A stretch of 64,000 nt of DNA from Cenococcum geophilum (taxonomy: Eukaryota), in the NCBI GenBank assembly GCA_050273025.1, contig CP158635.1, positions 6,014,001 through 6,078,000 on the forward strand, read 5' to 3'. This document shows, in pieces, positions 5,521 to 62,121 of the stretch. Every line of letters begins with the position of its first letter. The first letter of the stretch is position 1. The notes under the pieces were generated by a model. That model saw nothing but the letters and a program-made list of their open reading frames with translations, was not told the DNA's origin and did no database searches. The position numbers were made by a program, and so were the translations under genes.

Positions 5521-7564
5521 AAGGAGGTATTAAGCCTAGCCTTTAGCTAGGCCTTAGTTACCCCTAAATAGCCCTTAAGCAAGGCCTCGAGTAGTAGAGA
5601 TTTTATTCCTTATACGTAGTATTAGGTAATGTATTACCTCGCTTATTTATATTGTTATACGTAGCTTAACCAGCTAGTGTACTAAATACTCGCTTATCTT
5701 TTTAGTATGTTTGGCTCCGGTAGCGTAAAGCCTATCGCCTTATACGTAGCTATTAAGAAGCTCTAAATAGCCACTAGCTGCGCGCGAAGATAGCTTATAG
5801 GGTTTTTCCCTATATAATATATAATTTTCCTTTAGGTATAAAGTAGTCTATATAGACCTAAATAGGATTCGTCTTAGACGTTAATTAAAGATTAATATAT
5901 AATAATAATTCATTGCTTAACGTCCGATTTAGATCCCTATTGGGCCTACGCGGACTACTCCTTATTTATATATAGGGAGAAAACTCTATTTAAGAAAAAT
6001 GAGAAAACCCTGTGATCTATCTCCCTGCCTTTTGGGACTCGCCTACTTAGCGCCTATAAGTCGCCTATAGTGCTCTACTACCTTACTATTTAACCTCCTT
6101 AGGAACTACTACTGCCGTAATAAGCCTACGGACGCGCTAGTATTATAAACTATTACTCTACTACTATAGAGTTACTAGGGGGTACCTACTGCTCGCCCCC
6201 TTACCTTCTATTACTATTTCCCTTATAACCCAGAACTAATTTAGCATATTTTGACTAATAAGCCACTAGGTAACCGCCTTAAGGCCTTTTTATATTAAGA
6301 GTAGTGTATTATAGTTCTCTGTGCTAGCTGCTAAGAGTATTATTTTTTAATTAGTGCGTAGGGGGCATAGTAGTATTACGTGTTTTAGTGTCTGTTTTGG
6401 CTAGCTATATTTATATCTTAGGCTACCTACTAGAATACCCACCTAGTAAAGCCAATCTTTTAGTCCTATTATTCCTGTTCTTAAGAGTGTTACTATTATA
6501 TTTTCTACCTTTATTAGGCCTTCTTAGAGCCCTTAGGTATTTACCCCCTATAGCGTTAACCATACTATAGCTTAGGTTTGTCTTGCCTAAGTTAGCCTCT
6601 ATACCTTTAACTCCTATTTACCTCTTTAGCGTTGGTCTAACTAGTATTATATTGCGGTAGATAGTTTCCCGGCGTTCTTATATATTCTACTTTAGCTCCT
6701 TTCTCTATCTTACTGTCTTTACTAACCTCTTATACGTCTCCCTTTCTCCTCTATATAGGCCTGGGCCCTAAAGCGGCACTATTTTTCTTCTGCTTTCTTT
6801 ACCTATTTCTCTAATATCTCTTCCCTACTTTAGGGTTGTTAGTTTGTTCTTCTATAGGGCACCCTAGGGTCCCTCTATAGTTTACTTAGGCGTGTCTTAA
6901 TGTACTTTATAATATTAGAGTTGCGTTTATTTTATATCCTTTATATTATAGCGGCTTTAATATATAACTATAGGGGGGGAATATTAGATTCCTTCTTAAG
7001 CAGTGCTGTGGCCGTTTACTTATACCCGCCTATAATACTTTAAAGGTAGGCTATTTAGACCTTTTAAAGTGGTTTAAGGAGTAATTTAGGGGGGCCCTTT
7101 TTAGTTTCTCTAATGGCCCAAATATTAGATCTATATGTTATAGTTAGCCGGATAACTGCTATATATAGTAGGCGTGACCTTTAAAAGCATAGACCCTATA
7201 TAGAATTAATAATCCTAGATAAAGCGATAAACTGTGCTTGGCCTTTACGGGCCATTTACGCCGTATATGCGCTCTACTAAAGCTTACTATCTACCTATAC
7301 TCTTAATACCCTTAGGCCCTAAACTGGTTAACCCCTAAAGCCTTAAATATAAATTATATGCTAGAGATCTATAGATTGGTTGCATTTTCTTATAAAATAG
7401 ATTAGCTAGTATTTCTTTAGTAAGAATTGGACTTTATAACATTTTGCCTATTCTATATAAGTATTATAGGCTTTTTCTAGTGTTCTATAATTCTCTACGG
7501 CTATTAGCCTATATATAATTAGGTTTATATTATTAATAAAGCCTATCCCCTAGGTCGCCCCTTT

Positions 7565-7775: not shown

Positions 7776-9125
7776 TTATACTAAGCTCTCCCTACCTTGC
7801 CTGGAAAGGCCTTAATAATATCCTACCCCAAAGAAACTTCATCTGCAACGACGTATTAACGCGCTATACTTAGACACCAAAACAACTTTATATTGCCTGG
7901 GAAGGCCTAGATAATATCCCACCTTATAAGCTAGACAGGACTGGACCTATACCCCCAGAATTAAAACTAAAGCGTATAATACCGACGAACCTTAGGAAGC
8001 TAATAATAGCACCTAAAGCAAGCTTATTTAAGAGAGCTGCCTCTACCCAAGAGGAACCTAAGATCCAATTAGGATTAGAAATTGAAGATAATGATGACGT
8101 TATAGACGTACGCGAGCAGATTCGTGCCCTTGCAGCTAGCCAGGAAGCCAATCGTCTTAAAGCGAGAAATATATAAGAGACCCTACAAGAGATCCTAGAA
8201 AGCCTTACAGCCCTATAAAATAGCCTAGCTTTCCCTTTTTAAAGCCCTAGCCGACCTGTTTACTTTACTAAATGTAATATACCAGGGAGTACGGATATAA
8301 TAACAAAGTAATTAAAGTCCATTAAGCTCTTTAACCCCCCACCACTATCTAACGGGATAGACCCTACCTTTAAGAATTAGAGGATTTAAGTATAAGGAAA
8401 GCTCCGCGTTAACTATAACTATTTCCTTTCTAAAGAAGCTAAAATACTTTACCTCTTTGGTTAAACTACTGGGGATACCTAACGGCACCTTTAAGCCAAG
8501 TTTAAGGATGACTTCCCTGTCTAATTTATATCCGTTAATAAGATAATATAGCACCTAGCGGCTATCTATATTAACCCGAATAAAGTACAGGATGCCCGTT
8601 ATAACTATAATCGCCTAATAATAAAACCGAACTAACCCTTTACTAAATTCTAGACTTAATTCCTATACCTTGCAGGAGAAGGCTAGGTCCCCCTTAAGAA
8701 CTACCGATTAGACCTATATAATAAGCTAATAATCCGGCTATAAGAAAAGATTGCTGTAACCTTAGATAACCTACTAACCTATAAAAGACTCGCAGCTTAT
8801 TGCCTATTATTAGACTTAGAACTAAAGTAGATTAACGCCCGCCCTAATTGGTAGAAGCAACTCTATAATAATTAGAACTCGCTAGCTATACCTATAGAAG
8901 CTAGAGTAGAAAAATAAGTTATAACTACTCTTTTACTAAAGGCGGTTATAACTACGCACCGGCGAGCCTCGCCTAACTAGTTATATACTATACTATTAAC
9001 TAGTATTCGCTGCAATACTCTAATTAACCCTACCTCGGCTACGTACTTTAACTATAATAAGTACATTAGGAAAATATTCGCAGGATAAGATTTAAGTAGA
9101 CTTTGGTTTTCGCGTTTCGCGTAAT

Positions 9126-9518
9126 TAACATACAATTTAACCAACTTAACACGTAATTAACTAACTTAATACGCAGTTGACCTACTTAATATATAATTTA
9201 ACTAACTCGATACGCAGTTAACCTACTTAACATGCAATTTAACTAACTTAACACGTAGTTAACCTACTTAACATACAATTTAACTAACTTAACACATAGT
9301 TAACCTACTTAACATATAATTTAACTAACTTAACACGCAGTTAACCTACTTAATATATAATTTAACTAACTTAATATGTAGTTGACCTACTTAATATATA
9401 ATTTAACTAACTTAACACGCAGTTAACCTACTTAATATGCAATTTAACTAACTTAACACGCAGTTAACTTACTTAACATATAATTTAACTAACTCAATAT
9501 GCAGTTAACCTACTTAAC
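9126..9518. repeat. 41-bp tandem array (20+21-bp subunits) in element X1
   Basis: Unit ttaacctacttaacatgcaatttaactaacttaacacgcag with RIP-type variants; counterpart at about 25335-25890. Confidence 0.9.
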
Positions 9519-9648
9519 AACTTTAAAAGCTAACTATATATTTCTTGACGTGCGATTAAGGTAAAGTTATATATTATATATTTAACTATTATATATAATC
9601 TTATACAATCTTATACAATCTCATACAATCTTATAGTCTTATTACTTG

Positions 9649-10001
9649 GAGGCTCTGCACGAGGCTCTACACGAAGCTCTGCGTACAGAGGCTCTGCACG
9701 AAGCTCTGCACGAAGCTCTGCACGAGGGTCTGCGCGAGGGTCTGCGCGAGGGTCTGCGCGAGGGTCTGCGCGAGGGTCTGCGCGAGGGTCTGCGCGAGGG
9801 TCTGCGCGAGGGTCTGCGCGAGGGTCTGCGCGAGGGTCTGCGCGAGGGTCTGCGCGAGGGTCTGCGCGAGGGTCTGCGCGAGGGTCTGCGCGAGGGTCTG
9901 CGCGAGGGTCTGCGCGAGGGTCTGCGCGAGGGTCTGCGCGAGGGTCTGCGCGAGGGTCTGCGCGAAGCTCTGCGTACAGAGGCTCTACACGAAGCTCTGC
10001 A
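9649..10001. repeat. 12-bp tandem array in X1, including 20 perfect GAGGGTCTGCGC units at 9724-9963
   Basis: Directly visible; counterpart at about 24677-25238 is dominated by GAAGCTCTGCAC. Confidence 0.95.
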
Positions 10002-10132
10002 TCGGGTCCCCGCTATATTCCCGATAGCCTCTACACGTGCCTCTACCGTATGTAGCCACCTTATTTTTTACCCTTCCTTCCTTCTTTATATCCTCCCTAC
10101 CTAGGGAGGCACCAGAACGGCAGCCAGCAGAG

Positions 10133-10555
10133 GACCGTTGCTAGAACTAGACGACCGTCGCCAGAACCAGATGACCGTTACCAGAACCAGACGACCATCG
10201 CCAGCCAGACGACCGTCGCCAGAACCAGACGACCGTTGCCAGAGCCAGACGATCGTCGCCAGAACCAGACGACCGTCGCCAGCCAGACGACCGTTACCAG
10301 AACCAGACGACCATTGCCAGAGCCAGACGATCATCGCCAGAACCAGACAACCGTCGCCAGCCAGACGACCGTTACCAGAACCAGACGACCGTCGCCAGAA
10401 CCAGACGACCGTCGCCAGCCAGACGACCGTTACCAGAACCAGACAACCGTCGCCAGAACCAGACGACCGTTACCAGAACTAGACGACCGTTGCCAGAGCC
10501 AGACGACCGTCGCCAGAACCAGACAACCGTCGCCAGAGCCAGACGACAACGACTA
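10133..10555. repeat. 20/21-bp tandem array (CCAGAACCAGACGACCGTCG-like) in X1
   Basis: Directly visible; counterpart at about 24185-24560. Confidence 0.9.
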
Positions 10556-10597
10556 GCCAGCCAACACTATAAACGATTCGATCAATCGATCAAATTA

Positions 10598-10877
10598 AGG
10601 TAGCACAGACAGGTAGGCACAAACAGGTAGATGCTGACGGGTAGGTAAATGTAGACAGGTAGGTAGATACAGACAGGTAAGCAGATATAGATAGGTAGGT
10701 AGATGCAGATAGGTAAGTAAATGCAGATAGGCAAGCAAATATAGATAGGTAGGTAGATGCTAACGGGTAAGTAGATATAGATAGGTAGGCAAATATAGAC
10801 AGGTAAATATAGATAGGTAGGCGATGCAAATAGGTAGGCGATGCAGGTAGGTAGGTAAGTCAATAGGTAGATAGGTA
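10598..10877. repeat. About 18-20-bp purine-rich tandem array (AGGTAGGCAGATGCAGAT-like) in X1
   Basis: Directly visible; longer counterpart at about 23750-24140. Confidence 0.85.
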
Positions 10878-13800
10878 AAAGAGAACCATTGCTATATTAT
10901 ATTAAATTATCTAAAATAATAATATTTATTTTGCTAGCCTTATAAATAGCTTTAAAATAGCTTTTATTTATTTAAAATATATTATTAGTATAAAAGAGGT
11001 AAATATAATTATAGTTGCCAAATGCGCAGATTGCTGGTAGGTTGCGCGTAGGTTACGCGTAGGTTGCGCGCAGGCTGCGCGTAGGCTGCGTGTTAAAAAA
11101 ACACGACATAGGCTAGTCGGTCAAGTTGCCAAATGCCCTCAACTGCGCGCCAATTGCGTTAACCACCAACCATTGAGGCTATTGAAAGGGTACCATATTT
11201 TGCCGATATAGGGTTACTTTGCCTCGTCCTGCCCAGAGCTAAAAGATATAGGCGATATTAAGGAGATAGAGGAAGGAGAAATGTTAGATAAGTTAGGAAA
11301 AGAGAAACCCTAGGGAAAGACTCCCCTTTAGGGTACCCTATCGATCTTAAAGAGATTAATCTTAGTTAGTTAATAGATGGAAAGCATTTTATATTTCTAT
11401 ATATAGTATCTTAAAATAGATATAGAGTTAATATAACCGCCCTTATTAACACTAGAGTAAATAGCTTTGCCTTTATAAATATTACCTATATAAATAATAT
11501 TACCAAGTTTCTAAATATAGAAGCCATCTAACTAGAGAAGCCTATTTAGGTAAAAGGCTATAACGGCTAAGCTGGTTGGCCTATTACCTACGTCTTAAAG
11601 TTACATATTGCTCTTAACGGACGACGCCAATACAGTATCCCCTTTTACATCCTAGACCTAGGGTCTTACGATATAATCCTTAGACAAAAATAGATATCCT
11701 ATTTTAATATCTAGTTAAATATACAATAAAGACGGTTTATCTAGCCGGAGGATAGACTAAAGTTGCCCTCCTTTATTAGGGAGATCCGAACTAACCGTAA
11801 GACACTAGCCGTAAGGGCTAACCCTATTTACTAGTAGGATATCTGGGCCCGTGACCTAGCCTTTACCTAAGAAGACGCCCGCCACGAAGCTAGAAAGAAC
11901 TCTATACTGATAAAGATACTCTCCTAAAGCGCTACGTTTAAAGAGGACTTTACGTACGGAAGCGGGACAAATAGTAACATAGACGACGTCTAAATTGCAC
12001 GGATTTAACTGGTATGGAAAAGAACATATTAATAGGATATAAGGGATAACCTCTAAAAGATATAATAGGAGCTAAAAGGGGTAATAATAACGCCAGTACC
12101 CCGGAAGTCCCTAAAGTCATATACACCCCTATTGTTAGGCAACCCCCCTACCGTAGATATCGCCGCAATTAGCGCTATAGCATTCCACTTTAATATATAC
12201 CGGAAGAACAATAAGGTCTTTACAACGAGCCTATATAAGATTAACCAAATTATTAATAATAGAGAGGAAAGGCTAGCTAAGGAAACTAACAAGGAACTAG
12301 TTAAATGCCTTCTTTTTACTATTTATACAAACTACAAGGATGCATTCTTAAAGGCGGCCTTAGATAAGTTACCCCCCTACCAAACATACGATTATAAGAT
12401 TCAATTAGAAGCCAATAACTCGCTAGGCTATAGCCCCCTCTACTATTAATTAACGGATAAGCTAAAAGTAATAAAGTAGTACTTAATTGATAACCTGGAT
12501 AAGGGGTTTATTAAGCCAAGTTAAGCCCCTTTTACTTCCCCTATCCTGTTCGTAAAAAAGCCTAATAGAGGCCTTCATTTTTATATTGACTATTAGAAGC
12601 TAAACGCTATTACTTAAAAGGACCAGTATCCTATTCCTTTAATTAATAAGACCCTTATACGTCTAAGCTAGGTAAAGATCTTTACTAAACTTAATATCCG
12701 TTAAGCTTTTTACTAAATTAGGATAAACCCTATATTTAAAGATTTAATAACATTCCGTACCCGTTATAGTTCCTATAAATATAAAGTTCTTCCTTTTAGA
12801 CTAATAAACGGACTAGCTACGTACTAAAGGTATATAAATAATATTCTTTTTAATTACCTTAACGAATTCTGCACGGTATACCTAAACGACATTCTTATAT
12901 ACTCGGATAATAAACTTAAGCATTAAGTTCATATTAAGAAGGTCCTGGAAAAACTACGGAACACGGGCTTATAAGTTGATATTAAGAAATACAAGTTTGG
13001 GGTAAAACGTATAAAATACCTTAGGTTTATCGTAACTATAGAAGGAATTAAGGTCAACCCTAAGAAGGTAGAGGTAATCTATAACTAGAAGCCCCCTTAT
13101 ATAGTAAAAGGAATCTAGTCCTTCTTTAGCTTTTATAACTTCTACTACTGGTTTATCTATAACTACGGAATTGCGGTAAAACCTCTTATATAACTAACTA
13201 GGAAGGATACGCCTTTTATCTTTAATAATAGCTATATAGAAGCCTTTAAAGAGATAAAGGATTAGCTTATCTTTTCCCTAATCCTTTATCACTATAACCC
13301 GGACCTTAAATTAATGCTAGAAATGGACGCCTCTAATAGGGTCGTAGCGGGAATCCTATTATAGTTATATCTAGACGGCGAATGGTACCCTATAGCTTTC
13401 TTCTTAAAGATAATAGACCCGGCTAAGTGTAACTATAAAGTATATAATAAAGAAATGCTAGCTATTATTTAATTACTTTTCTAATAGCGCGTAGAGCTCG
13501 AAGGTATATATTCCTAAATTAAGATATATATAGATTATAAAGCCCTAAAGTACTTTATAACTACAAAGCAGCTTACTAAATAATAGGCCTAATGGGCCGA
13601 AATACTCTCCTAATTCTTCTTTACAATTATATATTGTTCTAGTAAGTAAAACTTTAAGGCTAATGCCCTAACCTAAAGAGAATAAGATGTAGGCCCCTAG
13701 GATAAGCTAAAGACCTAATATTAGACGCATGCCCTTCTTTATCTAGAACAGCTTGACCCACAGATCATTAAGGAGCTAGACTCTTAGTAAAACGAGCTAG

Positions 13801-14280: not shown

Positions 14281-17200
14281 TGTAAGAGGCCAGCCTAACT
14301 AGAACATATAATTATCTAATTAACAGTGTCACCAGTAAGTAGAAGGTAAGTTAAAGGTAAATAGAAGGTAAGTTAAAGGTAGAATGAGTTTTACATATTA
14401 AAGGACAAATGCTTCTAACTACTTCTATTTAGAGACTAATCGCTAGTTCTTCTCTAGAGGAGAACTAGCTCCCTATATAATCTTTCTAAGACGCTAGCAA
14501 AACCCTTTACCCCTTATCTGTCTAACTATGTCTTTTGGGACGTAGATAGAATATAGGTAAGACCTCCTTTTAGAATATAGATGAGACCTCCTTCTAGAAT
14601 ATAGATAAGACCTTCTTTTGTCTTATCTAATATATACCTTCTAGGGAATTCCATTATAATTACCTCCCCTTTAAGGGTCTTAGTCCTCTAAGACTTCGCC
14701 TCTACTAAGCTTTTATAAAGTTCCGGCTAAAACCACTAAGGAAATTCTTAGTGGAAAGGTACTCTATAATACGGCTTATAGCTAGTTCTTTACTAGCGTA
14801 GAACCTTACTTTATTCTTAGTTCCTCTGCTTTTTTCCTACTATAGTTCCCTATAATGCCTTTATAATAGAACTAAAATAATAATAATAAAAATTAGATGG
14901 GATTCACCTTTCTTATTATAAGAGTTTGTTATAAGTTGATTTGGAGGTTATCCTATATAACGCGTCTATAAGCCACTATCCCTATTTACCTAAAATGGAT
15001 TCTAATAATAATATCTTTATTTTAATTTTCTTCCAGTTTATAAGCTATTGCCTCTTACACGTCTTTTCATCAATAACACCATTCGTCTCGTCTTTCAGCA
15101 AACTATTTCCTCTATATCTCCGCTTTTAGCTTTTATATCTTTAGCTATTCTTTTATAGCTGCTTTATTCTCTTCTTATAACATATCTATAAGTAATAGGA
15201 TCCCTACCTTATCTTTTTATAATAATGCTAACTTCTTAGAGTATTCTCTTATAATGGCTCGTGGTCCCCAGACCAGCGGTAGTGTTATTAATCTTCCGGT
15301 AACGCCTTAGACAGCGTCTGTTGCTCCTGCGGCAGTTTCCCTAAAATGCTGTCATCGCTACATTTATGCTCTTACGTAAGATCCTTCCTACGTTTATAAA
15401 ATACCTCGCTCCGGCGAAAACAAATCCAAGTGCTCTTATTATTGTAGTAGGAGAAAGACCTACGTCCTAGTATTTCCTATTCCGTCCTATTCTAAATTTC
15501 GCTAATTATACTAGATTTCCGCTATCTATGCGCATAAAACTTATAGGCTCTAACACGCTATCTAAGATTTCCGCTAATATCCTAATAGTAATAGGCGGAG
15601 ACAGAAGGTGTCTTCCCTCGCTCGCAGACTCTTTAATTTTATAAGGGTTTCCACTACTATAGAGACGCAACGTTTTCGGATATATAGTATCTAGGAGCAC
15701 ATATGCAAACAGCTCGTCCTTATTAATAATAACATTTATACTCTTACGCAGACTACTTTAGCTAGGTGAGTTTCTCTAGTGACTTACTTAGGAACTGTGC
15801 TAACTCCTTTAGCTAATATCTCTTTAATCCCTACTTAGACGCCAATTTAGAACCTAGGGATACTAAGGATAGCGATAAAGGTTAAGATAAACGTTCTCCT
15901 CGCCAGTCTCCCGCCTATGCTGGTCCTTCCAGTACCTATTGTTCTAAGAAGAATATTAGTGAAAGTGCTAATGCTTTTGGGGATGGAGGAGCTAATAATA
16001 CCGTTAATAATGACGTTAAGATAGAAGAGGAGGCTCCTATTGCTGCTGCTGGTATTTAAGTTATTACCTAGCTCTTTTCTTCTTATAGAATAGCTTTATA
16101 TAGTGCCTCTCGGGTGCCTTTAGGATGCCCTATTATTGGGAATTAACTTTATACTTTAGGGATGCCTTTATTTTAAGCTTTGGTGATAATTTATATAAAC
16201 GTAGTATACTACTATAATCCCCATATATAATAAACGGGTAGTGTTCCTATAGGTGCCTTATAATTCTTTAAAATTTCTAATTCTTTATAGGCTGTCCTTT
16301 TGCTCCTCTTCGTACTATTAACTCTACTATATATCTCCGGTGCCAGGCCAAATACTCTTCTTTTATCCCTAGGGGATCTTACTAAATCCCTAAGGCCACT
16401 TCTTATAGTGCTATTACTCCTTCTTATATAGCGTCTTCTTTAAATAGTATCCCTAGTGGTTCTCCTATAAATTTCTATAGGCTTCCTCTTATAAGATTCT
16501 AGGATCCCTATTATAATAGCGAAACGTTTCCGTTCTTAATGCCTATACTTAATCCTATGGTTTTAATTTACGGGGTTTTCCCTATTACTTTACCTGTAGC
16601 ATATCCAGAACCATTTTTAAGTCTTTACCTTTAGTTCTTAGGAAGGTTTTAATTACGGTGTTATATCCCGGCTAAAGGTACTTCTTAGGTTCCTAACTAT
16701 TATGTGCCTAGAAGTATCCTTCTTAATAAACTAAAAATTCGCGCTTCTTCTGGCGCCATCTTTAGTCTAAAATGTCTTCTATATTCTATTCTAGTTCCCT
16801 ATTAATTTCGCTAGGTAGGGGCGGTTCCGCACCATCTCTTTTTTAGTATAGCTTTAGTAAAGAAACATAAAATATAGGATATATTAGATAAGATTTCAGT
16901 AATTCTAATTCATAGGCTTGGTTTCCTTTAGTTTTTTTAACTATCTTAAAGGGTCTGAGTTACCGGTGATCTAGCTTCTTCTTAATGCGTTTTATTCAGA
17001 TATTTTTTATAAATAATAAGACTTCGTCTCCTATCTTAAATTCTTTCGGCATATATTTTTTGTTATAGTACCTTTTTTGCACAGCCTAGGCGTCTAGCAA
17101 GTGCTTTTTAAGTTCCTCTCTGCGAATTCTTATTTGCTTAATTCTTTTGAACGCCGCTAATGCCTCTCTTTTAGGAACGATGTCCTTAACGTTCTAGGGG

Positions 17201-20200: not shown

Positions 20201-22066
20201 ATAGACTATTACAGTCCTAGCTGGCCACAGAAAAAGCTTATTCCCTATAGTATAGAATCTAGTAGCCTCTAATGCTTTAAACAGTGCGCACCTACAAGCC
20301 GCTAAGGTCTAAATCTAATTCTTTTACTAGTAATTAAGAAATAAACCCTATACTCACGCCGCTGTCTATAAGGCAGTCTCGCGTTACCTATTTATTATTA
20401 ACTTAAATAGAGACAGGAATAACTATACGGCAGTTTACTCCCTCCTTCTCTTACTGGCCTAGTATAAGGGAGTAAAGATCTACTAGGCTATCTCTTTTTC
20501 TAATTAGGCTAACTCTTGCTTCTTTTACCGGCAGAAGCGGCTTATATGGCCCTTCTTACCGCAGTTATAACAGGTGCGTGTCTTTTAGTTCCCCTCCTAC
20601 GGATTAGGTCTCTACCCATTGTTATTTTAAGGTTAACTAGCGTTACTTTAGGGCTATAAGGCCTGCTTACGTTGTCCTTTTATAGAGCGGTTAGGTCAGA
20701 ATCTACCCCTATTATTAAAGCTAGGTCTAGTCTTACGCTCTTTATTATTGGCGTCTCGTTCCTTTCACTTACCTAGATAATCTCTTTTAGCACTTTTAAT
20801 CCGAGTAGCTTTAGAGATAAGCTTTTCTCAAAAGGTAGGAATTTCGCCCTTTTCTTATATAGCCTGTTAAATCTTAGGTTATAGCTTAGCAAGTAGCTGG
20901 TGAAGTTATATAGCGTTATCCTATAGATCTAAGTAGGGTATATTGTCTTCTAGTTTTTTTAAGTAGTTTATAAACTAGACCACAGTCTAACTATCCCGCT
21001 ATTTGGCGTTATGGTATTACTAGTTATAGTCTATCCTTTAATTAGTAGGGTCTTAAACCTAATTAACTAACTAGGTCCTAAGTTCGCTAAATTTAAGGGG
21101 TATAGTAAGTTTCTTCTCATAGCGTGTCTATGAACTCTTAACGGTGCCACGTAGGAAGGTAGAAGTAATTAGTGTCTAATTATACTCGTTAGAGTAATAT
21201 TTCAAATCTAGCTAAAACTTAGTTTCGTATTATTGGATAAAATAATTGTAGTTCTAAAGACTATTACTATAGTACTTATTAGGTTCCTTTATGCGGAATT
21301 TAGGTTTTTCTAACGTTACAGTATAGTGTGGCGTTACCCCTTTAAGTCCGCTTTGTGTCTAGGGTATCTATACTTCCCCTAATTATCCTTACAATTATTT
21401 TTAGTAGTCTTAATATACTTATCTTAATCGTATCTCTAACTCCTTTGTTTTTTATAGGGTCTTATATAGCAACCGCTCCAATAACTCCCTAGCGGTAATC
21501 GTTTTTAAAGGTCTTATAAGGTTAGACAGACTAGCCGTAGCTTCTTCATAGAAAGAGGGAATGCGCTCCTCTAGGGAGACTCTTTAAGCCTCTTGCGGTA
21601 AGGGCGTTGCTTTATAGGGTATAGGAGTATAATTCGTTATCGTTAATTAATAGCCGTACGTTCCTAACGGATTGTAAGTAATTAGAATTATAAGAGGCTA
21701 GCTTAACCGGAATGTATAATTATCTAATTAACAGTGTTACCGGTAAGTAGAAGGTAAGTTAAAGGTAAATAGAAGGTAAGTTAAAGGTAGAATAAGTTTT
21801 ATATATTAAAGGACAAATGCTTCTAACCACTTTTATTTAGAGACTAATTGCTAGTTTTTCTCTAGAGGAGAACTAGCTCCCTATATAATCTTTCTAAGAC
21901 GCCAGTAAAACCCTTTACCCCTTATCTATCTAACCGTGTCTTCTAGGACGTAGATAGAATATAGGTAAGACCTCCTTCTAGAATATAGATGAGACCTCCT
22001 TCTGGAACATAGATAAGACCTCCTTCTATCTCATCTAATATGTACCTTCTGGGGAATTCCGTTATA
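14281..22066 (-). mobile_element. Ty3/Gypsy chromovirus B, full length, RIPed, inserted in the integrase of Gypsy A
   Basis: 378-bp LTRs at 14281-14658 and 21689-22066, TSD TAACC, PPT complement attacctccccttt at 14659. Minus-strand gag with CCHC near 20550, RT, RNase H, integrase (MDFITGLP ORF 17383-17709) and chromodomain at about 16640-16800. Confidence 0.95.
15254..16059 (+). pseudogene. RIPed antisense accessory gene inside Gypsy B: three exons, Cys6 zinc-cluster-like N-terminus, acidic C-terminus
   Basis: ATG at 15254. Introns at 15470-15514 (GTATTT..GCTAAT..TAG) and 15766-15812 (GTGAGT..GCTAAC..TAG). Stops in exons 1-2 are TAA/TAG. Reverting RIP-type changes gives C-x2-C-x11-C-x11-C-x2-C-x6-C. 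Confidence 0.65.
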
Positions 22067-23418: not shown

Positions 23419-25950
23419 TATCGGCAAAATATAGTACCCTATCAATGGCCTTAATAGTTAGTAGTTAACGCAATTGGCGCGCAGTTAAGGGCATTTAGCA
23501 ACTCGACCGACTAGCCTATATTATATTTTTTTAACACGCAGCCTGCGCGCAGTCTACGCGCAACCTGCGCGTAACCTACGCGAAACCTGCTAGCAATCTA
23601 CGCATTTGGCAACCACAATTATATTTACCTCTTTTATACTAATAGCATATTTTAAATAAATAAAAGCTACTTTAAGGCTATTTATAAGGCTAGCAAAATA
23701 AATATTATTTTAGATAATTTAATATAATATAGCAATGGTTCTCTTCTACCTATCTACCTATTAACTTACCTACCTACCTATCTACCTACCTACCTATATC
23801 GCCTACCTGTCTACATTACCTACCTATCTGCATCGCCTACCTATCTGCATTGCCTACCTGTCTACATCGCCTACCTATCTGCATCGCCTACCTGTTTACA
23901 TTGCCTACCTATCTATATCGCCTACCTATCTGCATTGCCTACCTGTCTGCATCGCCTACCTATCTGCATCGCCTACCTATTTGCATCTGCCTACCTATCT
24001 ATATCTGCCTACCCATCAGCATTTACTTACCTGTCTGCATCTGCTTGCCTGTCTGCATCTGATTACCAGTCTGCATCTGCCTACCTGTTAGCATCTGCCT
24101 ACCCGTCAGCATCTCCCTATTTGTGCCTACCTGTCTGTGCTGCCTTGATTCGATCGATCGATTGAATCGTTTATAGTGTTCGCTGGCTAGTCGTTGTCGT
24201 CTGGCTCTGGCGACGGTCGTCTGGTTCTGGCGACGGTCGTCTAGTTCTGGTAACGGTCGTCTGGTTCTGGCGACGGTCGTCTAGTTCTGGTAACGGTCGT
24301 CTGGTTCTGGCGACGGTCGTCTAGCTCTGGCGACGGTCGTCTGGCGACGGTCGTGTGGTTCTGGTAACGGTCGTCTGGCGACGGCGACGGTCGTCTGGTT
24401 CTGGTAACGGTCGTCTAGTTCTAGCGATGGTCGTCTGGTTCTGGCGACGGTCGTCTCATTCTGGCGACGGTCGTCTGGTTCTAGTAACGGTGTTCTAGTT
24501 CTGGCGACGGCGACGGTCGTCTGGTTCTGGTAACGGTCGTCTAGTTCTGGCGACGGTCCTCTGCTAGCTGCCGTTCTGGTGCCTCCCTAGGTAGGGAGGA
24601 TGTAAGGAAGGATGGATGGATAAAAAAAATAAGGTGGCTACATAGGAGAGGCTATCGGAAATATAGCGGGGACCCGATGCAGAGCTTCGTGTAGAGCCTC
24701 TGTACGCAGAGCTTCGCGCAGAGCCTCGTGCAGAGCTTCGTGCAGAGCCTCGTGCAGAGCCTCCGTACGCAGAGCTTCGCGCAGAGCCTCTGTACGTAGA
24801 GCTTCGGGCAGAGCCTCTGTACGCAGAGCTTCGTGCAGAGCCTCTGTACGCAGAGCTTCGTGTAGAGCCTCGTGTAGAGCCTTATGCAAAGCTTCGTGTA
24901 GAGCTTCGTGCAGAACTTCGTGCAGAGCTTCGTGCAGAGCTTCGTGCAGAGCTTCGTGCAGAGCTTCGTGCAGAGCTTCGTGCAGAGCTTCGTGCAGAGC
25001 TTCGTGCAGAGCTTCGTGCAGAGCCTCTGTACGCAGAGCTTCGTGTAGAGCCTCGTGTAGAGCCTTATGCAAAGCTTCGTGTAGAGCTTCGTGCAGAACT
25101 TCGTGCAGAGCTTCGTGCAGAGCTTCGTGCAGAGCTTCGTGCAGAGCTTCGTGCAGAGCTTCGTGCAGAGCTTCGTGCAGAGCCTCTGTACGCAGAGCTT
25201 CGTGTAGAGCTTCGTGTAGAGCCTTGTGCAGAGCCTCTAAGTAATAAAACTGTGTAAAAATTTATTTGCGTAATTAGCATATAACTTTACCTTAATTGCA
25301 TGTTAAGGAATATACAGTTAGCTTTTAAAGTTGTTAAGTAGGTTAACTGCGTGTTATTTAACTTTTAAATATATTAAGTAGGTTAACTACGTATTAAGTT
25401 AGTTAAATTATATATTAAGTAGGTTAACTACGTGTTAAGTTAGTTAAATTACATATTAAGTAGGTTAACTGCGTATTAAGTTAGTTAAATTGCATATTAA
25501 GTAGGTTAACTGCATATTAAGTTAATTAAATTATATATTAAGTAGGTTAACTGCGTATTAAGTTAGTTAAATTATATGTTAAGTAGGTTAACTGCGTATT
25601 AAGTTAGTTAAATTATATATTAAGTAGGTTAACTGCATGTTAAGTTAGTTAAATTATATATTAAGTAGGTTAACTGCGTATTAAGTTAATTAAATTATAT
25701 ATTAAGTAGGTTAACTACGTGTTAAGTTAGTTAAATTGCATATTAAGTAGGTTAACTGCGTGTTAAGTTAGTTAAATTGCATGTTAAGTAGGTTAACTGC
25801 GTATTAAGTTAGTTAAATTGCGTGTTAAGTTAGTTAATTACGTGTTAAGTTAGTTAATTGCGTGTTAAGTTAGTTAAATTATATGTTAATTACGCGAAAC
25901 GCGAACACCAAAGTCAACTTAAATCTCATCCTGCGAATATTTTCCCGATG
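23419..25950 (-). mobile_element. Non-autonomous TIR element X, copy 2 (inverted), in the 3' UTR of Gypsy A
   Basis: TA flanks at 23417-18 and 25951-52; ends tatcggcaaaatat / atattttcccgatg; same five arrays in reverse order with different copy numbers. Confidence 0.88.
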
Positions 25951-26220: not shown

Positions 26221-29200
26221 CCTTTCTTAAAGGAGTTAAGTAGGTTGCTTATAAAGAAAAGGAAGAGTATAGGTAAGAGGGGTAATCCTTATAGTATTCC
26301 TGTTATAACTATAATAGGGGGGCTCTAGTATTTATTAAAGACTAGTAATATTTCTTTCTAGCCTATAAACCCTTAGATAAATTATATAATTTATTCTAAA
26401 AAGCCCTTTACCCTAAGGATATATAGGAGACGCTTATAGGGTATATTATTATAGGCACTACTAATATCTAGGCTAAGTATTAATACTATAAAGTTCTTTC
26501 GCATCGCCTATATAGATTTAATAGTGGTAGCAAGTAGCGTAAGTGCTAATAGTGTTAAGCGGTTCTTTCTTGCCCCTATTTAGCTTTATAGTAGTAGGGC
26601 GTATTTCTTTACCATATCTGCTATATATTCCGCTATTACCCTTTCTAAGATCTTACTAAGGGTGTTTTCTAAGGCAATAGGGCGGTAGCTTCCTGGGATT
26701 AAGTAATCTACTTTACCTTCTTTTTATAGGATAACCGTCGTTATAGATCTTCTAAGTTATAGGTAGTAGCCTATAGTAAAGCATGCTTTAGCTATATCTG
26801 TAAGCTAAGGTGCTATAAGTGGCCTATAGGTTTTTAGGGCCTTATTTAGAATCTTATCTAGTCCTAGTACTATATTATTTAAAAGGCGGCTAATAGTTCT
26901 AGCTATTTCCTCTATTATTATATTGCTGTTAACCCGTAGGTAAGTTACTGGTGTTTCGCTTATAATATTACTAAGGTCTGCTAAAGCTGGTTAGGGGAAG
27001 AACCTTTCTATAAGGATCTTTGCCTTTTTATTATTGTTATTTATAGCCTATAATTCTCCTACTCTTCGTAAGGGTAGTAGGTATAGGTCTTTTGCTAGGC
27101 GCCCTGCCTTTTTTTTTTACCTATTTTGCTATAGCCTAAAGGCCCTTATTATGGGGGAGGCTTAGGTTAGAAGTATACTCATTTATAAACCATCTCTAGT
27201 TATTTCTTACTTTTTTTTTAGGGTATTCTTTAGCTGGTTTCTTGTGTCTTTATATTATCTCTTGTCTTTAGGGTTATAGCTACTTATATATTTCCTTCTT
27301 GCTTATTATTAGCTGGTAACTAGAACTACGTATTATATAGACTATATATATCGCGTATAGGGGCCCGGTTTTAAGATTAGGCAGTACTCTTTTAGCCTAT
27401 TTTTAATTACTGCCTAGATCCTTTCTAGTCTTTAGTTAATTTCCTTAGGGGTGGCTAATAAGCCTCGCTTATTTAGTATTAGGTGGATTTCTTCTAGGTT
27501 TTAGAGTTATTATTTAACTACATTAAGGAAACTATTTATCTTAAGCTTCCTTATTACATATCTTTTTCTATTTAATTGCGCTTTAATATCTAGGTCTAGC
27601 TATATCTAAATAGGGATATAGTTTAGGGTAAGTGCCCATTTTTCTTTAAGGTTGTACCTTTTAAGTCTCTAGTATAGGCCTTTATCCATAAATATGAGGT
27701 TAATTATGCTTCTGGCGGTGCCTTATTACCATATAATTGCTTCTAGGGGGGTGGCTAGCTTAAGGCCCTAGATATCTATAGCTCTTAGTAAGCACTCTAA
27801 CTGTTAATCTACAGCAATATGGATACCCCCCTACCGCGGGTAGTAGAGGTTTATGTCTCCTAGTAGGATAAACTCTATACCTTCGGTTTCTAGTAAGCTT
27901 ATTACTGATATAATATTCTCTATTTATGGGACCCCTTTAACCCTAGGGTTATATACATTAATAATTTATACCGGTCCCCTATATGTTTAGATTATTATAA
28001 CTACAATATCTAGGTTAACTGCCTGCTATAACTATAAGAATAGGCTGATAGCCTTGCTGATTATAAAGCACACGCGTATAGCTGCTTTTGGTTCATATAG
28101 GAGCTAGAATCCTTGGGGGCAGTATGTCGATTATGTGAAGGTATTATAATACGGTTCTTGTATAGCAAGGATATGGTGTTTCTCTGGGTCTAGACTGTCT
28201 AGTAGGGGCCTTGCAAGGCGGTGGTTTGTGTTGCCGCAGTTATACTGTATAATGGATAGGTGGCGGACCCCCGGCGAGGGTCCTTCGACTCTCCTTCATT
28301 CCTCGCTTCTTCTGTTTCCACTTTCTCTAGGATATTCGGAGCTAAGATTAATATATATACTTTAATAATAAAAATTAAAGTTTAAAAATTAAAGTTTAAA
28401 AATTATAATAATATTTAGCTATAAGGGGGTAAGGTGTTTTGAGGCAGCTTTAAGGAAATAAGATTTTATTGAAAGCTAAACTATATAGACCTTGCAAGTG
28501 ATAAGACGTTCGGACAAGGAACAGAATAGATTCGGGTCGACGTGGTCAAGATATAGGGGTAGCTGTGGTACGTGCGCGTGCTTCGAGAGGCTTCGACAGA
28601 ATTCCACTGTCGTCGAGTGTTTCACCGAGACGTCCTTACTGTAACGAGACAGTCCTGTTACATTAGCCTAAGCACGTATAGCGTAAAAGTCTTAGCACAC
28701 TATAAGGCCAAAAAGACAGTAGTGTTTACGACTCTTATATCAAGACTGTTACTTTTAAGGTTTAAATATTTACTTCTGCTTAATCCTAAGATTTGGCTAT
28801 ACCTCCTCTTCCCAGTTGCATACAAGATTATATCACTGGCTAATATTGCTATATCTCTTATATAGAAGGCCCTAATGTCTTAGAAAATTTACGGGATCGG
28901 CACCTGCGGCCCTTCCACCACCCTCCGACACTTTAACGACTTCATTTCGAGCTCAGTCCATCTTAAGACTCTATATTGCGAGTCAGAAGAAATAAATTAA
29001 TCTGGCCAGTATTAGAACTGATCTCTTGAGCTTCTGAGACGTTGATAAATATTACTTTGCAGATATAAGAAATATATTAGCTCCCAAGTGTAGCGCTCAA
29101 GCTTCCTGGATCTAATTATGTACATTTAAGGTACTGTCTGAAATATCGTGTTTGGCCCATGCTAGCCTCATGGGGTGGTGTTTTACCTGAGCGATCTCAA

Positions 29201-29555: not shown

Positions 29556-31156
29556 TCAGACACAACTGTCCAAAGCATCAATCCTAGCTTTCCAATTCTT
29601 AACTATTTCTCCAATACGGCGCACCTTGTTGAGCTCAGCCTGGAGCTCATCCATCTCGCTTAGAATCATTTTGAACCTCCGAATCTGTTCGTCTGCTGTT
29701 TGAGCTGGGGTGTCGCCGGTATCATAGCGAACAACCACTGCAAGTCGAGCTTCTTCTGACAACTGCCCATTCGCAATAATTATTAGCTTTCAGTTTTTAT
29801 GCTTTCTAGGAAAATATGGCTCACCACTTGCCATCGTGCTTGGATACTATTTAGCAAGCAGTTAAATCGTGACTTCAGTTCTTGAAGTCCTGCAGGATCC
29901 AAATGAATTTGGCCGTAAGTATCCATGTTCTGTGGCAAGTTGTACAAGCTCTGATTCAACAAGAGGCTCATCGAGTGAGTGTTGTATACGTTCTCATTGA
30001 GCCGCAGGACGTCCGTCCGTCCGTCCATTTCAATAGCCAGTCTTGTCTCTGATTCGATGAAGCTGTTAGAGGAGCATAACTTTAAGCCCTGCTGAAGTAG
30101 CTTGCTGAATTTCTTCTTGTCTTGGGTAGTTTCAAGATCTCCTAATCGAATCACGGCTCGTAGGACATCCACATAAACCTCCTCTGACTTTTTTGAGTAA
30201 TCGGCAATTACATGCTGTTGATCGCTTAAGTCGCCCCTTCTTGTCAGGCCTAATAACGCATATACCTTGTCTCTAATGTCAGAGCATTCTAGGTTCTGAA
30301 ACATCTCCAAAAGTTTTTCAAGGGGAACCACTCTGAATGCAGCTGGTAGATTCTCCCATATAGTCTTGTGTTCGAACATCTGACCAGCATAGCTTTCGAG
30401 AACCGCTGCAGCATACGGGTGGTGTTCGATACGGCCATTGGCCGCAACACGTTGGAGCTTTTTAATCACTTGATCCATGCATCGCCACTCGACACTCTTC
30501 TGGCCGCACATAACCTCAATCCTCTCGGCAGCCATGATCTCCTGGACGACCCAGATACGTCTCCAGTACCGTCTTTCGCAGAGTGCTAAAACAGCTTTGC
30601 CTTCATTGGACTTCCAGATATTTCGCAAGCCACTTCCCTTCCGTTTTATGGGTCTAGGCCCCTTTTCGCGGATGTAGTCCATAGCAATATCGCTATTGTC
30701 AGCCGCTTGGCCAAGCCAAACTGCTACTAACGCTGCCTTTTGAAATGTCAGCTAAAAGTAAGCGCCATTGTACGGGTGCTCTTATACATTGCTGTATATT
30801 TGCCTCATCAAATTAACTTGATGATTCCTTTCCAATATGTTGGACTGATCAATGCAAAGAGCATCAATCCAAAACAGCTTCCGCCGGTTGCGGAGACGCA
30901 TATGGTGGAGAAACCACCATAGGTTCTCTCGAGTCATGAACCGGCAATTATTAATTTGGATCTCTTTGAGGTGATTGGCTGGACCCCATGTGTATGACAG
31001 TGCAACGTAAGGCGGACATTTTGAGAGAGGAAAGCATTGAAAGTTACATTTGATCGTGGATGAGTCGGACTCGGAGGCCGGCTGAAGCTCAACGAGTCTG
31101 ATATTTTGATAGGCTAAGTCGAGAGCTGTGGTTTCGTAAACCGAAGACAAGGACAT
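29556..31156 (-). CDS. HET-domain (heterokaryon incompatibility, HET-6-like) protein, three exons
   Basis: Motifs IRLVEL, YVALSYTWG, FWIDALCIDQ..ERNHQV.LM..IYS.A..V.VWLG, YWRRIWVVQE and DKVYALLGL. Intron 30737-30787; a second intron at about 29763-29824 joins a short helical C-terminal exon. Confidence 0.9.
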
Positions 31157-32852
31157 TTTGGCGCCTCTCAACGGATACCCCTAGAGGTGCGAACGGATAA
31201 ACATATCTAAAATACATAGCCGGAAATAAAAAAACTGGAAATGTGAAGCAAAAGCAATCGGACAAGGGGTTCTAGACCCGAATGTGACCACTAACGTCAG
31301 GTGAACCTAAGGGGCTAGCACGAGACTGCTGATAGACATGGAAAATGAGACATGAAGCACCCTTCTTCGTGCCACACCATGAAGCGTCTAGATAGCAGCA
31401 TATCGGGTCAATGCGATAAAATCTATCCAGCTTTTAAACGATAAATTCCTTTTAGAAGTTTATCTACTATAAGTTGCGTATGATAGAGAGCGCGCAGTGT
31501 AGTTAGTGCCATGCATATAAATACGCAGAGACAGATGGGAAATGTGGTTTAATTCTCTTTGCCTGTTCTGCCAAATATTGGTGTGCTTCCCAAAGACTAA
31601 GCAATTTTCTTCTAGGTAATGAGCGACGGATCGGCTGACCAACCAGGGTGATTCGATATCAGCGGTCCAGACAGAGTGGCCCACCAAAAAAAGCGGTCGG
31701 GGCACACCTCAATAGAGGTTGCCAAACCCTCCCGCATAATTTATTATTTCTCTCCTATGTAGGTGCGCATTGCACGTCCAGTTGAAGGTGCACGGATCAC
31801 CAGGTGGTAGGACGCTACCAGGGGAAGGGATATTTTGGGGCTCACTTAGGTATCCACGGGTTTTCCGTAACTGCTTGTAAGAATCCCTTTCACGCTCGCG
31901 CGAGCCGAAGCGAGTTCCAAGTAAGCGTGGGTTGAGAAATGAATGGCCCCCATCCCCCGAGTATTTGATAATCTATACTAATCTTTCCAACACTCTGATG
32001 CGTATGCACTACTATTGCCTAACCTATTTGAGCTCTGACCGCATTTCTTCTTCCTGCAGCAATGAAGAGTGCCCCACGAAACGCTACTTTCAGTATGCTT
32101 TCACGTCATATGCAAGTAGATTTCCGTGACAATGGTGAACAAGGAGTACGGTCTTTGATTTTCTCACCACTGCTTGATTTAATAAGACTACTACCAGTTC
32201 AGGGCTTGAAAACATTCGCTATTGGCGGTCTTGTCTCAACGGTTAAATAAAACATCGAAAGAGAGTTCTTTTTGGACTTTTCGCATATAAAACACTCTTG
32301 AAAGTCTGTATGCGTTCTAGTCAAGGCGTTACGTAAACGACTACACAAGAGTCTTCTTCTTAGAGGCGTCTCCTACAGCGATTAAGTTCATATATACACC
32401 CAACGCGACTCTAGATTTATCTATATTCTAGGTGTTTCTACCCGTATATTAGCCCCCCTTTATACCCTCTCATAAAAGTTATAAGATCCAGGACTCCGTA
32501 AAAATGGCGGTTCAAGTTGAATTCAATTTATCGGTCGTGGAAGGCCACCTCTATTGGCCCATGGACAGGATCTGTAAAAGCATTTAACCTGTTATGGTAG
32601 ACAAGGAAACTCGAGATAGGTGCCTAGTGAGCGGACAGCCGGAATACGTGTATCGTACGACGAACTCGCGCATAAAGCAGCAATCAGTGAGACTCTTCTG
32701 AGTGCACTGCAGAAGGAGTTGAAATCATCCTCTGCCTTATGGGTCCGCCAAACACTCTTAAACCCTCAACTAGGTAACGTAATGCGCAGCCTCAACTGGT
32801 GAATTTCAATAAAAATGTGGCTAACAAATATATTTTTGTTTAACATTCTCTA

Positions 32853-49656: not shown

Positions 49657-49743
49657 TATATAAATATAAATATTACCAAATTAAAATTTAGCTCTAATCT
49701 ACCTAATATAGTATTTAAATATAGCTAAACTCGTCCTATTATT

Positions 49744-54727: not shown

Positions 54728-54998
54728 CGTGTTACGTACGGTACCGATGCGGAGGCCGACTTTCGGTTGACGCGTTTTCACGCGACATCAACGGTCTTGG
54801 CGAAGATGGGTCGGACTGGGTTGTGCTTCACTACAGTGGCCTCAAGTCAGACGGTAGAGGAGGAAGAACACCAAAGGGCACACGGATCATACCATCAACC
54901 AGCAGAAACTAAGCTTGCTTGCAACAAAAATCTGGATATCTCCACACACGAAGTCTTACCCCGCTATGCCGGCCTAAAGAACCGTCACAGCTCCGGAG
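54728..54998. promoter_or_regulatory. Probable bidirectional promoter between RAP1 and SWF1
   Basis: Only 271 bp separate the two divergent ATGs; function is inferred. Confidence 0.5.
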
Positions 54999-61414: not shown

Positions 61415-62121
61415 ATGTCTGGCTACGAAGGCATGTAGCGACTACTATTCTAACCAGAAGAACATTCTAACTCGCCACAGTCGAGCATAACATCCCCGCG
61501 AACGAACCCAGGCCTGCCCGTCGCCCCGACCTATCCACCTTCTTCTCCACCCTCGAGCTTATCGATACGTCCGACGAGCAAGGTCATCACAATGTGCACG
61601 CACTACCTCAGCCCGACGATATGACCGCAGCGTACCGGCTGCTTGCGAACGCATTCGAGATGATGCGAGGTGGAGATTCTGGGCAGGAACAGCAGGATGG
61701 CGGAAACGATCTACTGGCGACTATGGTCCAAAGCTTAATGGAGAGTGCCAATGACCCGCCGCGCGAGCTGCAGGGCGTGCCAAATAGCTTTCTCGATGAG
61801 CTAGAAAGGGTGCCGAAGAAGGCGTTGAAGAAGACGGATACCTGTCCAATATGCTGCAACCCATTCCTTGATGGTAATACTCTAAGACTTGAACAAGGAT
61901 ATAAGATAATACAGAAGCTAATGGTGTCGCATGCAGATGAGTACCCACTTGTAGTTCAGTTACCTTGTCACAAAGATCACCGCTTCGATCTTGATTGCAT
62001 ACGGCCTTGGCTGAAGCTTAACTCTACTTGCCCGCTCGATCGCAAGGTTTTGACCAAGAAGGAGCCACCTGTGCTGGAGAAGGATGATGATGATGGCGAG
62101 TGGGACGATATGTATGCCTGA
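61415..62121 (+). CDS. Small RING-H2 finger protein (putative E3 ligase), three exons
   Basis: MSGYE/VEHN start, RRPDLSTFF, CPIC..FLDDEYPLVVQLPCHKDHRFDLDCIRPWLKLNSTCPLDR. GC-AG intron 61431-61480 and GT-AG intron 61874-61936. Confidence 0.9.

Follow-up and report, generated by a model that had tools for sequence, protein, structure and literature searches.

Structure of the locus

The window, a 64,000-nucleotide stretch of contig CP158635.1 of Cenococcum geophilum, holds two copies of a short element with terminal inverted repeats (TIRs), here named N1, of which copy 1 occupies exactly 9064-11208 on the forward strand (Table 1). A reading made earlier from the letters alone (the sequence-only reading) had placed both copies to the base, and the element is real. 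The arrays of both copies were called by TRF, which returned the five that this reading had listed; a 10-bp array (9592-9635) had escaped it. In copy 1, TRF itself bounded the 12-bp array at 9649-9974 and the 18/17-bp array at 10625-10855. Copy 2 carries the arrays of copy 1 in mirror order, minus the 10-bp array. The TIR is 14 bp long and identical at 13 of 14 positions (one mismatch), and both window copies have RIP changes within it.

Table 1. Positions of N1 modules in the window.
Feature	Position	Strand	Remarks
Left TSD copy, TA	9062-9063		empty paralogous site in L154 with a single TA
Left TIR, 14 bp	9064-9077	+	RIP-changed
Left arm, ~580 bp	9064-9642	+	from the 20-kb Plavaka parent P1
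41-bp subterminal array	9137-9519	+	dimer of a 20/21-bp unit; shorter version in P1
10-bp array	9592-9635	+	also in P1; in 41/68 short copies
GC-rich foreign core, ~1.2 kb	9649-10893	+	common to N2-N5; not in P1
12-bp array	9649-10000	+	relative is an internal minisatellite of Plavaka family P3
Core spacer sp2	9999-10127	+	26-bp motif, CT-rich run, 8-bp inverted repeat
20-bp array	10128-10547	+	variant units of 17-21 bp
Core spacer sp3	10548-10600	+	includes the 22-bp palindrome 10575-10596
18/17-bp GGTAGG-rich array	10601-10860	+	ends in 4-bp repeats
Right arm, ~315 bp	10894-11208	+	from P1; ~29 bp deleted relative to P1
11-bp subterminal array	11037-11090	+	also in P1; RCGCAR motif in common with the left array
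Right TIR	11195-11208	-	
Right TSD copy, TA	11209-11210		
Second N1 copy, 2,532 bp	23419-25950	-	TA TSD; empty site in L007
Copy 2, 11-bp array	23537-23603		
Copy 2, 17/18-bp array	23746-24119		
Copy 2, 20-bp array	24196-24563		
Copy 2, 12-bp array	24678-25234		
Copy 2, 41-bp array	25334-25857		

Copies, ends and target sites of N1

Searching the genome with end motifs yielded 442 left-end and 383 right-end matches, corresponding to several hundred copies; the reversed patterns used as a control gave 0 matches, so the end matches are not due to chance. We compiled 68 copies: copy 2, 27 selected for their similarity to copy 1, and 40 for which only the ends served as the criterion. The order of modules is maintained in 67 of them; array lengths are variable (CV 0.19-0.45), whereas the ends and the two inner spacers are constant (CV 0.02-0.06), as had been read from the two window copies. 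The CGAT-rich palindromic junction, also noticed then, is a degenerate form of a 22-bp perfect palindrome present in 58/68 copies, 54 of which differ from it only by C>T/G>A. RCGCAR motifs occur in the left arm 4.6 times per arm on the + strand and 0 times on the - strand, and in the right arm 4.5 times on the - strand and 2.3 times on the + strand (39 copies).

An exact target site duplication (TSD) of 2 bp flanks 62/68 copies and one of 3 bp flanks 2/68, against a background of 37.6% agreement between mismatched flank pairs. At empty paralogous sites exactly 2 bp are missing in 42/47 cases, and 2 or 3 bp in 44/47. The earlier view of a mobile, non-autonomous TIR element is borne out. The TA flanks hold for both window copies but are not a family trait: 38 of the 62 two-base TSDs are TA and 24 are not, and for several TA sites the empty paralogue has CG, TG or CA instead, a caution that in genomes subject to RIP an apparent TA target may be an artefact. 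The termini, CATCG..CGATG, are a variant of CATCA..TGATG.

End pairs lying 5-17 kb apart were considered as intermediate deletion forms and discarded, as all nine that were read are N1 copies with other elements inserted. None of 13 insertions inside N1 copies is a whole Plavaka-ended element, and capture by nesting has no direct support from them. On contig C1 the left ends (n=82) are evenly spread (KS p=0.92), and the longest array seen, ~1.85 kb, still lies within an element; neither the satellite seeding once suggested for the element nor a centromeric role finds backing here.

A Plavaka parent for the arms

Five elements of 19.8-20.0 kb with N1 ends, ~91% alike along their whole length, define the parent family P1. 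The Plavaka transposase domain PF18759 was found in all six long P1 copies fetched (E 1e-43 to 3e-30, with 17-26 stops), so that long copies with a transposase between the same ends, which the earlier reading had envisaged, do exist. Because the 2-bp TSD is variable and the same ends bound a Plavaka-encoding parent, we assign N1 to the PlavakaB type and not to Tc1/mariner: it is with good probability a non-autonomous PlavakaB-type (CACTA-related, CMCT) cut-and-paste transposon with a chimeric body. A Tc1/mariner-type MITE with a TA target, a lead that the TA majority among the two-base TSDs had favoured, is refuted by the non-TA duplications, by the CG, TG or CA found at some empty sites and by the partner found, which encodes Plavaka where a DD34D/E transposase would be expected; the CMC-type hint that had been drawn from the CA start and the 2-bp TSD was the right one.

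Only the arms of N1, with their 41-, 10- and 11-bp arrays, derive from P1, so that the proposal of fused subterminal regions of a larger autonomous element is correct for the arms and fails for the core. Candidate acidic motifs for the DDE triad, with putative catalytic residues, and a C(2)C motif were spotted by eye in P1 copy B and in P3; in both, each H motif, of the H(3-4)H kind expected for PlavakaB, shows a Y in place of one H, consistent with RIP. A P3 fragment finds its best database relatives exclusively among PF18759 proteins, with identities of up to 40% over 89% of the query. P1 and P3 have an 860-bp piece in common, 82-86% identical at the DNA level; in P3 it contains a ZNFX1 domain. 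A helicase in P1, suggested by motifs seen by eye, was rejected, as Pfam returned 0 families on three 1.3-kb frames. We scored 123 of 266 Plavaka candidates and read 1-6 copies per parent family, and an unsampled large element could carry the core natively. Since every copy scored is broken by RIP-type stops, N1 is probably idle in this genome.

A foreign core

Three of the arrays belong to a core common to four other families, a point that the sequence-only reading had missed. Neither blastn nor a purine/pyrimidine scan detects the core in P1, and its origin as a RIP-degraded P1 interior was rejected, the best 40-mer matches in the latter scan being at background. Its GC content is 0.54, against 0.30 and 0.40 in the arms, and the 26-bp motif of sp2 has 1,265 genome matches, far above the number of N1 ends. 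The spacers sp2 and sp3 and the 20-bp and 18-bp arrays are absent from six P1, three P2, two P3 and one P4 copies and from 10 kb of a second P4. Apart from a 12-bp-like array in P3, no part of the core was met in P2, in P4 or in either P3 copy. The most likely source of the 12-bp array is an internal P3 minisatellite. The borders of the core vary from family to family, and neither terminal repeats nor a TSD belonging to the core were seen there.

Several other identities for the core were set aside. An rDNA origin gave no match below E 0.04 against one 10-kb unit. For a structured RNA, Rfam returned one chance match (E 4.9) and the spacers fold no better than shuffled sequences (z -1.2 and -0.6). 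Coding by the 12-bp array was discarded because the repeat unit by itself generates open frames and the Pfam matches are repeat-driven; in one N2 subfamily the frame is shifted by 8 inserted bases. Neither comparison of the 12-bp frames with Pfam nor Rfam revealed a host gene fragment in the core.

Sister families and probable transfer of the core

Among 40 core loci checked outside N1 ends, 38 fall in four short families, N2 (19), N3 (12), N4 (4) and N5 (3), with ends different from those of N1 and from each other; where both ends were found, 22/24 such loci have a 2-3-bp TSD. The ends of N4 and N5 start CGTCA, not CATCA. Three of these families have a Plavaka-type parent of their own, and parents measure 20-29 kb; the parent of N5 was not found, its candidate having proved to be an N5 copy beside a truncated P2. 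The identity of sp2 between families is 84-94%, whereas the parent transposases are 26-48% identical in protein, values that RIP has lowered. All five families are present in metagenome contigs, and no sixth appeared among nine longer metagenome loci without recognised ends: other insertions interrupt three or four of these, and the remainder belong to known families.

N4 contains P1 right-arm sequence with the N1-specific deletion, which P4 does not contain, and N5 contains P3 left-arm repeats. As these are relics of earlier arms, the sequences indicate that the core would have passed from N1 to N4 and from N3 to N5. The sp2 of N4 equals that of an N2 subfamily (6/18 N2 rows), so the history of the core is a mosaic and not a simple chain. 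Core-less elements of ~450 bp with N4 ends also exist. Swapping of the ends around one core among five families is well supported.

RNA reads and RIP load

In one raw-read RNA run, of which 12% was read and which had no control stretch, reads over the core are stranded (11.9:1), come from several haplotypes and are mostly 90-95% alike (sister families), and 19 molecules start within the CT-rich run of sp2. Arms and core are also covered in three RNA runs of contig type, a kind of data that cannot show transcription. Protection of N1 from RIP was not significant: the load in the common ends has a median of 5 in 39 N1 copies, against 4-14 in six P1 copies (p=0.13).

Proposed explanation and alternatives

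We propose that the P1 transposase moved N1 in trans, presumably through contacts with the TIRs and with the 41- and 11-bp subterminal arrays, and that array lengths shift by slippage or unequal exchange, for instance during gap repair. The core would have changed carrier several times, once the ends of another Plavaka family flanked it, either through adjacent insertions whose inner ends were lost or through template switching in gap repair, and each swap would leave short relics of the former arms. Our tentative first choice for the five-fold uptake of the same core is passive recapture of an abundant, recombination-prone template.

Our second choice, doubtful as it is, gives the core an advantage in cis: a promoter, enhancer or open-chromatin island under selection that would increase transposition, let its carriers out-compete others and hop to whichever transposase is active. 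The presence of one core in five families agrees with this, as do its higher GC content, the stranded reads with their starts in sp2, and the observation that all 68 short or interrupted P1-ended copies contain core sequence and none is a plain P1 deletion. However, the core-less N4-ended elements imply that the core is not required, the RIP load of N1 is not clearly below that of P1, neither Rfam nor folding lends support, and the RNA basis is the single partly read run described above. An extended version, offered as speculation and held unlikely, makes the core a superfamily-wide parasite, a transcribed cassette that would improve its own mobility, swap onto the ends of whichever Plavaka family became active next and outlive the RIP death of each transposase family.

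It is improbable that the short families are deletion products or relatives of an unsampled autonomous Plavaka holding the whole core, with modules exchanged among large elements. The piece common to P1 and P3 does imply that large elements swap modules, the 12-bp array has its relative inside P3, and P5 was not found; but 12 large copies of four families lack sp2, sp3 and the 20-bp and 18-bp arrays, the deletion in the N4 relic is private to the short N1 family, and 38/40 extra core loci are short families. More improbable still is that each family separately acquired a core that was a mobile element in its own right or came from the host, as an rDNA spacer or a centromeric or other functional repeat: the excess of sp2 matches over N1 ends would suit it, whereas the family-variable borders without terminal repeats or TSDs, the lack of homology to one whole rDNA unit, the even spread along C1 and the relics of other families' arms that travel with the core all speak against it.

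Short DNA transposons are commonly regarded as deletion derivatives of a single parent. In this case one cassette of ~1,200 copies appears to have switched parents several times and to have retained a record of the order, which provides a dated and testable example of non-autonomous elements that acquire foreign interiors and survive their transposases; the core also allows any gain in mobility from internal sequence to be tested directly. The work yields the first short derivatives that we could find for Plavaka transposons in a RIP-active ascomycete and defines, by ends and TSDs, four parent families of 20-29 kb. It also carries a warning that clustering repeat libraries by internal similarity will lump together families that different transposases mobilise.

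Relation to known systems

Non-autonomous CACTA/EnSpm elements have short TIRs, subterminal repeats at both ends and variable internal arrays, and move in trans. N1 matches them in its TIR, subterminal repeats and variable arrays; unlike these derivatives, it carries three non-parental arrays common to five families with unrelated ends. Within the CMCT clade, the available part of PMC12730594 describes PlavakaB with a 2-3-bp TSD and CATCA..TGATG ends, including families of 24 kb and 21 kb and one that starts CATCGGGG. The parents described here agree in Plavaka transposase, CATC-type ends, 2-3-bp TSD and a size of 20-29 kb, and the N2 and N3 ends resemble families published there over the first 10-12 bases (PMC12730594). 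In contrast, N4 and N5 start CGTCA, no multi-array short derivative or shared core was seen in the available part of that paper, and the 14-base N1 end has 0 matches in its supplement text, in which long cells are truncated. The main text of PMC12910237, on a large RIP-affected fungal genome, does not contain the terms Plavaka, CACTA, CMC, MITE, minisatellite or non-autonomous. The literature searched describes no comparable core common to several DNA transposon families; a family deposited in Repbase or Dfam but not described may exist.

Pack-CACTA elements hold foreign DNA between CACTA-type ends, captured between neighbouring insertions after one end is lost (PMC6379663, as far as available). 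This capture model fits the end swaps of N1-N5, but here one cargo was retaken by several families, whereas in Pack-CACTA many cargos are taken by one. A parallel for a conserved middle that borrows its mobilisation signals from different autonomous partners lies in SINE superfamilies with a common central domain and in MER6, a MITE carrying the V domain (PMC6887750, as far as available). Core-domain SINEs are deeply conserved retroposons that have Pol III heads, derived from tRNA, 5S or 7SL, and a LINE-type tail, whereas N1 is a cut-and-paste element with a mostly minisatellite core; N1 has no Rfam match and has TIRs and a 2-bp TSD instead, and the core of N1-N5 is confined to one fungal lineage as far as tested. 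If the core did prove to be a parasite of the superfamily, it would be the DNA-transposon counterpart of the central domains shared among SINEs.

N1 copies, target sites and parental elements

Both window copies of N1, the short TIR element, were borne out on re-examination with their arrays, 14-bp TIR and palindromic junction as described in the sequence-only reading, and an additional 10-bp array was found. A search of the 178-Mb genome (7 contigs) using degenerate end patterns yielded 442 left and 383 right matches (reversed controls: 0). On contig C1, 82 left ends gave 71 end pairs under 60 kb. Of these, 57 span less than 8 kb (median 2,419 bp), and a second size cluster lies at 19.8-20.0 kb. 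For TSD scoring, 71 loci were examined, resulting in 68 copies with both ends present. Module order was kept in 67 of these 68, and array length varied while ends and inner spacers were constant, as the two window copies had suggested. An exact 2-bp TSD was found in 62 copies (38 TA, 8 AA, 6 TT, 10 others), a 3-bp TSD in two, a RIP-altered TSD in one and none in three, against 37.6% agreement for mismatched flank pairs. The TA flanks noted at first thus hold for many copies but not as a general rule. We identified an empty paralogous site for 47 of the 68 insertions (in two cases the match was to the insertion's own repetitive flank), with a commonest gap of 2 bp in 42, 3 bp in 2 and 0 or 1 bp in 3; such a site exists for each window copy. 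Several TA sites are CG, TG or CA in the empty paralogue, so TA is partly a product of RIP (C>T-type repeat mutation). Some N1 copies (L060, L071, L088, L049 and mid-size pairs) harbour many foreign insertions; several of these are bounded by clean TIRs that belong to unrelated families.

Long copies with a transposase between the same ends, a possibility raised by the sequence-only reading, do exist. They form family P1: five measure 19.8-20.0 kb and share ~91% identity over their full length; the sixth, 21.2 kb long, is 80-89% alike. In each of the six, a Plavaka domain bearing 17-26 stops lies 2-3 kb in from the left end. Variation among the five comprised 3,586 transition columns versus 14 with a transversion. 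PlavakaB, within the CMCT clade, is described as having 2-3-bp TSDs and CATCA..TGATG ends, and a family beginning CATCGGGG is among those tabulated (PMC12730594). Since the P1 domain, TSDs and ends match published PlavakaB, N1 is almost certainly, by the features tested, a non-autonomous PlavakaB element. Large elements bounded by the ends of the short families N2, N3 and N4 also exist (P2, P3 and P4, respectively).

Features of the window and of the genome (G000, assembly; C1-C7, contigs)
Feature	Location	Strand	Description
HET-domain gene	window 29783-31180		
Host Rap1 gene	window 52119-54787	-	BRCT, Myb and C-terminal domains
DHHC gene	window 55306-56448		
SDR gene	window 58627-59232		
RING gene	window 61471-62121		
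RIP-changed repeat	window 5896-7563, 26221-28343, 45873-49662		fragments of one element
RIP-changed direct repeat	window 14283-14658, 21691-22066		376 bp, 7.4 kb apart; resembles LTR pair
rDNA array	G000:C7:578899-628897		six 5.8S matches, spacing 9,969 bp
P2, 21.0 kb	G000:C4:8666928-8687921, G000:C2:28137412-28158414		3 copies read; Plavaka or Plavaka-like sequence; internal duplication of ~5 kb and 74-bp repeat; additional inward-facing TIR copy near left end
P3, 29 kb			2 copies read; Plavaka or Plavaka-like sequence; large internal duplications, 81-bp and 10-bp arrays
P4, 23 kb			1 copy and part of another read; weak Plavaka match, E 2e-10
Least damaged Plavaka domain among 123 scored genome matches	G000:C7:7211547-7212527		family P3; 5 stops
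P1 element with 860-bp piece	G000:C1:19465181-19485174		piece 13.2-14.0 kb from left end; adjoined by helicase-like motifs
P3 element with 860-bp piece	G000:C7:7205932-7235201		piece holds ZNFX1 domain (PF25396, E 3.8e-32)
Core-less elements	G000:C1:12832308-12832785, G000:C1:16006002-16006453		palindromic, N4/P4 TIRs; at least 5 such pairs on C1
Recombinant L118	G000:C1:14799701-14806700		core, longer P1 relic, N3-like arm repeats; outside assigned families

In the window (G000:C1:6014001-6078000), RIP-type dinucleotide skews mark the repeat blocks at 1-29 kb and 44-51 kb, and fungal genes occupy the remainder. The 860-bp piece common to P1 and P3 shows 82-86% DNA identity (their transposases are ~64% alike in DNA); a fragment of a ZNFX1-type RNA-silencing gene may have been captured and exchanged.

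A core shared by families with different ends

N1 matches P1 only in its two arms, the left one including the 41- and 10-bp arrays and the right one the 11-bp array; the GC-rich core in the middle (12-bp array, spacer sp2, 20-bp array, spacer sp3, 18-bp array) has no P1 counterpart, even in purine/pyrimidine code. N2, N3 and N4 each overlap their own parent by only ~100-470 bp per end, and sp2, the 20-bp array, sp3 and the 18-bp array are absent from every P1-P4 copy read. A native minisatellite of near-exact 12-bp units occurs in P3 alone (10 and 6 units in two copies; 0 in P1, P2 and P4), and the P3-type minisatellite region lies 8-10 kb from Plavaka matches at about ten genome places.

Core spacer motifs outnumber N1 ends (652 and 1,265 genome matches). 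On C1 we read 40 core loci that are not part of N1 pairs, half of them drawn from each of the two spacer-motif lists, and assigned 19 to N2, 12 to N3, 4 to N4 and 3 to N5, some by one recognised end; the other two were an N1 fragment and a rearranged locus. A 2-3-bp TSD was present in 22 of the 24 with both ends identified. The five end types recur in 120 metagenome loci (11, 13, 10, 10 and 4; 72, mostly short, unclassified), none of which mixes the ends of two families.

Between families, sp2 sequences show 84-94% identity; the figure within N1 is 92% (53 rows). For the transposase frames, identity is 39-48% (P1-P3) and 26-32% (P1-P2), values lowered by RIP. On this basis, descent of the short families in parallel with their parents is unlikely. 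N4 carries, behind its core, 30-75 bp of P1 right arm with an N1-private deletion, absent from P4; N5 has P3 left-arm repeats in front of its core; and the sp2 of N4 is that of an N2 subfamily. In an N4 copy on metagenome contig L175, the 12-bp array is partly inverted and the P1 relic is longer than in the assembly's copies. The core has been passed on more than once and recombined, probably by end-swapping among transposon families. For Pack-CACTA, capture of DNA between neighbouring insertions after one end is lost has been described (PMC6379663). Such capture would leave arm relics like those of N4 and N5. Template switching in gap repair is a second route that would do so. No whole Plavaka-ended element was found among 13 insertions inside N1 copies; one N1 copy is located inside a P1 element.

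RNA evidence and function of the core

About half of the N1 element's words were present in 20 of 24 listed runs. Using one raw RNA run, 5,097 of 9.29 million records were placed on a shorter copy, L080, within which core depth was 11.9x higher in one mate direction (RNA strand (+) by the usual library convention), the arms were nearly bare (mean depth 0.6 and 6.8 versus 95 in sp2) and 19 molecules started at one sp2 position. This pattern is no more than a lead towards a possible promoter in the core. At 90-95% likeness for most of these reads, and with loose ends of N3 type, they stem from sister families, an origin that alone may explain the bare arms. A special function is disfavoured because there was no clear RIP protection of N1 and no Rfam signal, fold signal or rDNA homology for the core, the spread on C1 is even, and core-less elements of ~450 bp with N4 ends exist. 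We consider a selected function of the core less likely than not.

Comparison with known systems

In non-autonomous CACTA-type elements, both subterminal repeats and internal arrays are already known. Plavaka elements are likewise of a known kind (PMC12730594). The literature searched, outside Repbase, Dfam and most subscription journals, held no report of a single core common to several DNA-transposon families. As for the core of N1-N5, SINE families share a middle domain joined to different partners, and a domain of this type was once passed to a MITE (PMC6887750).
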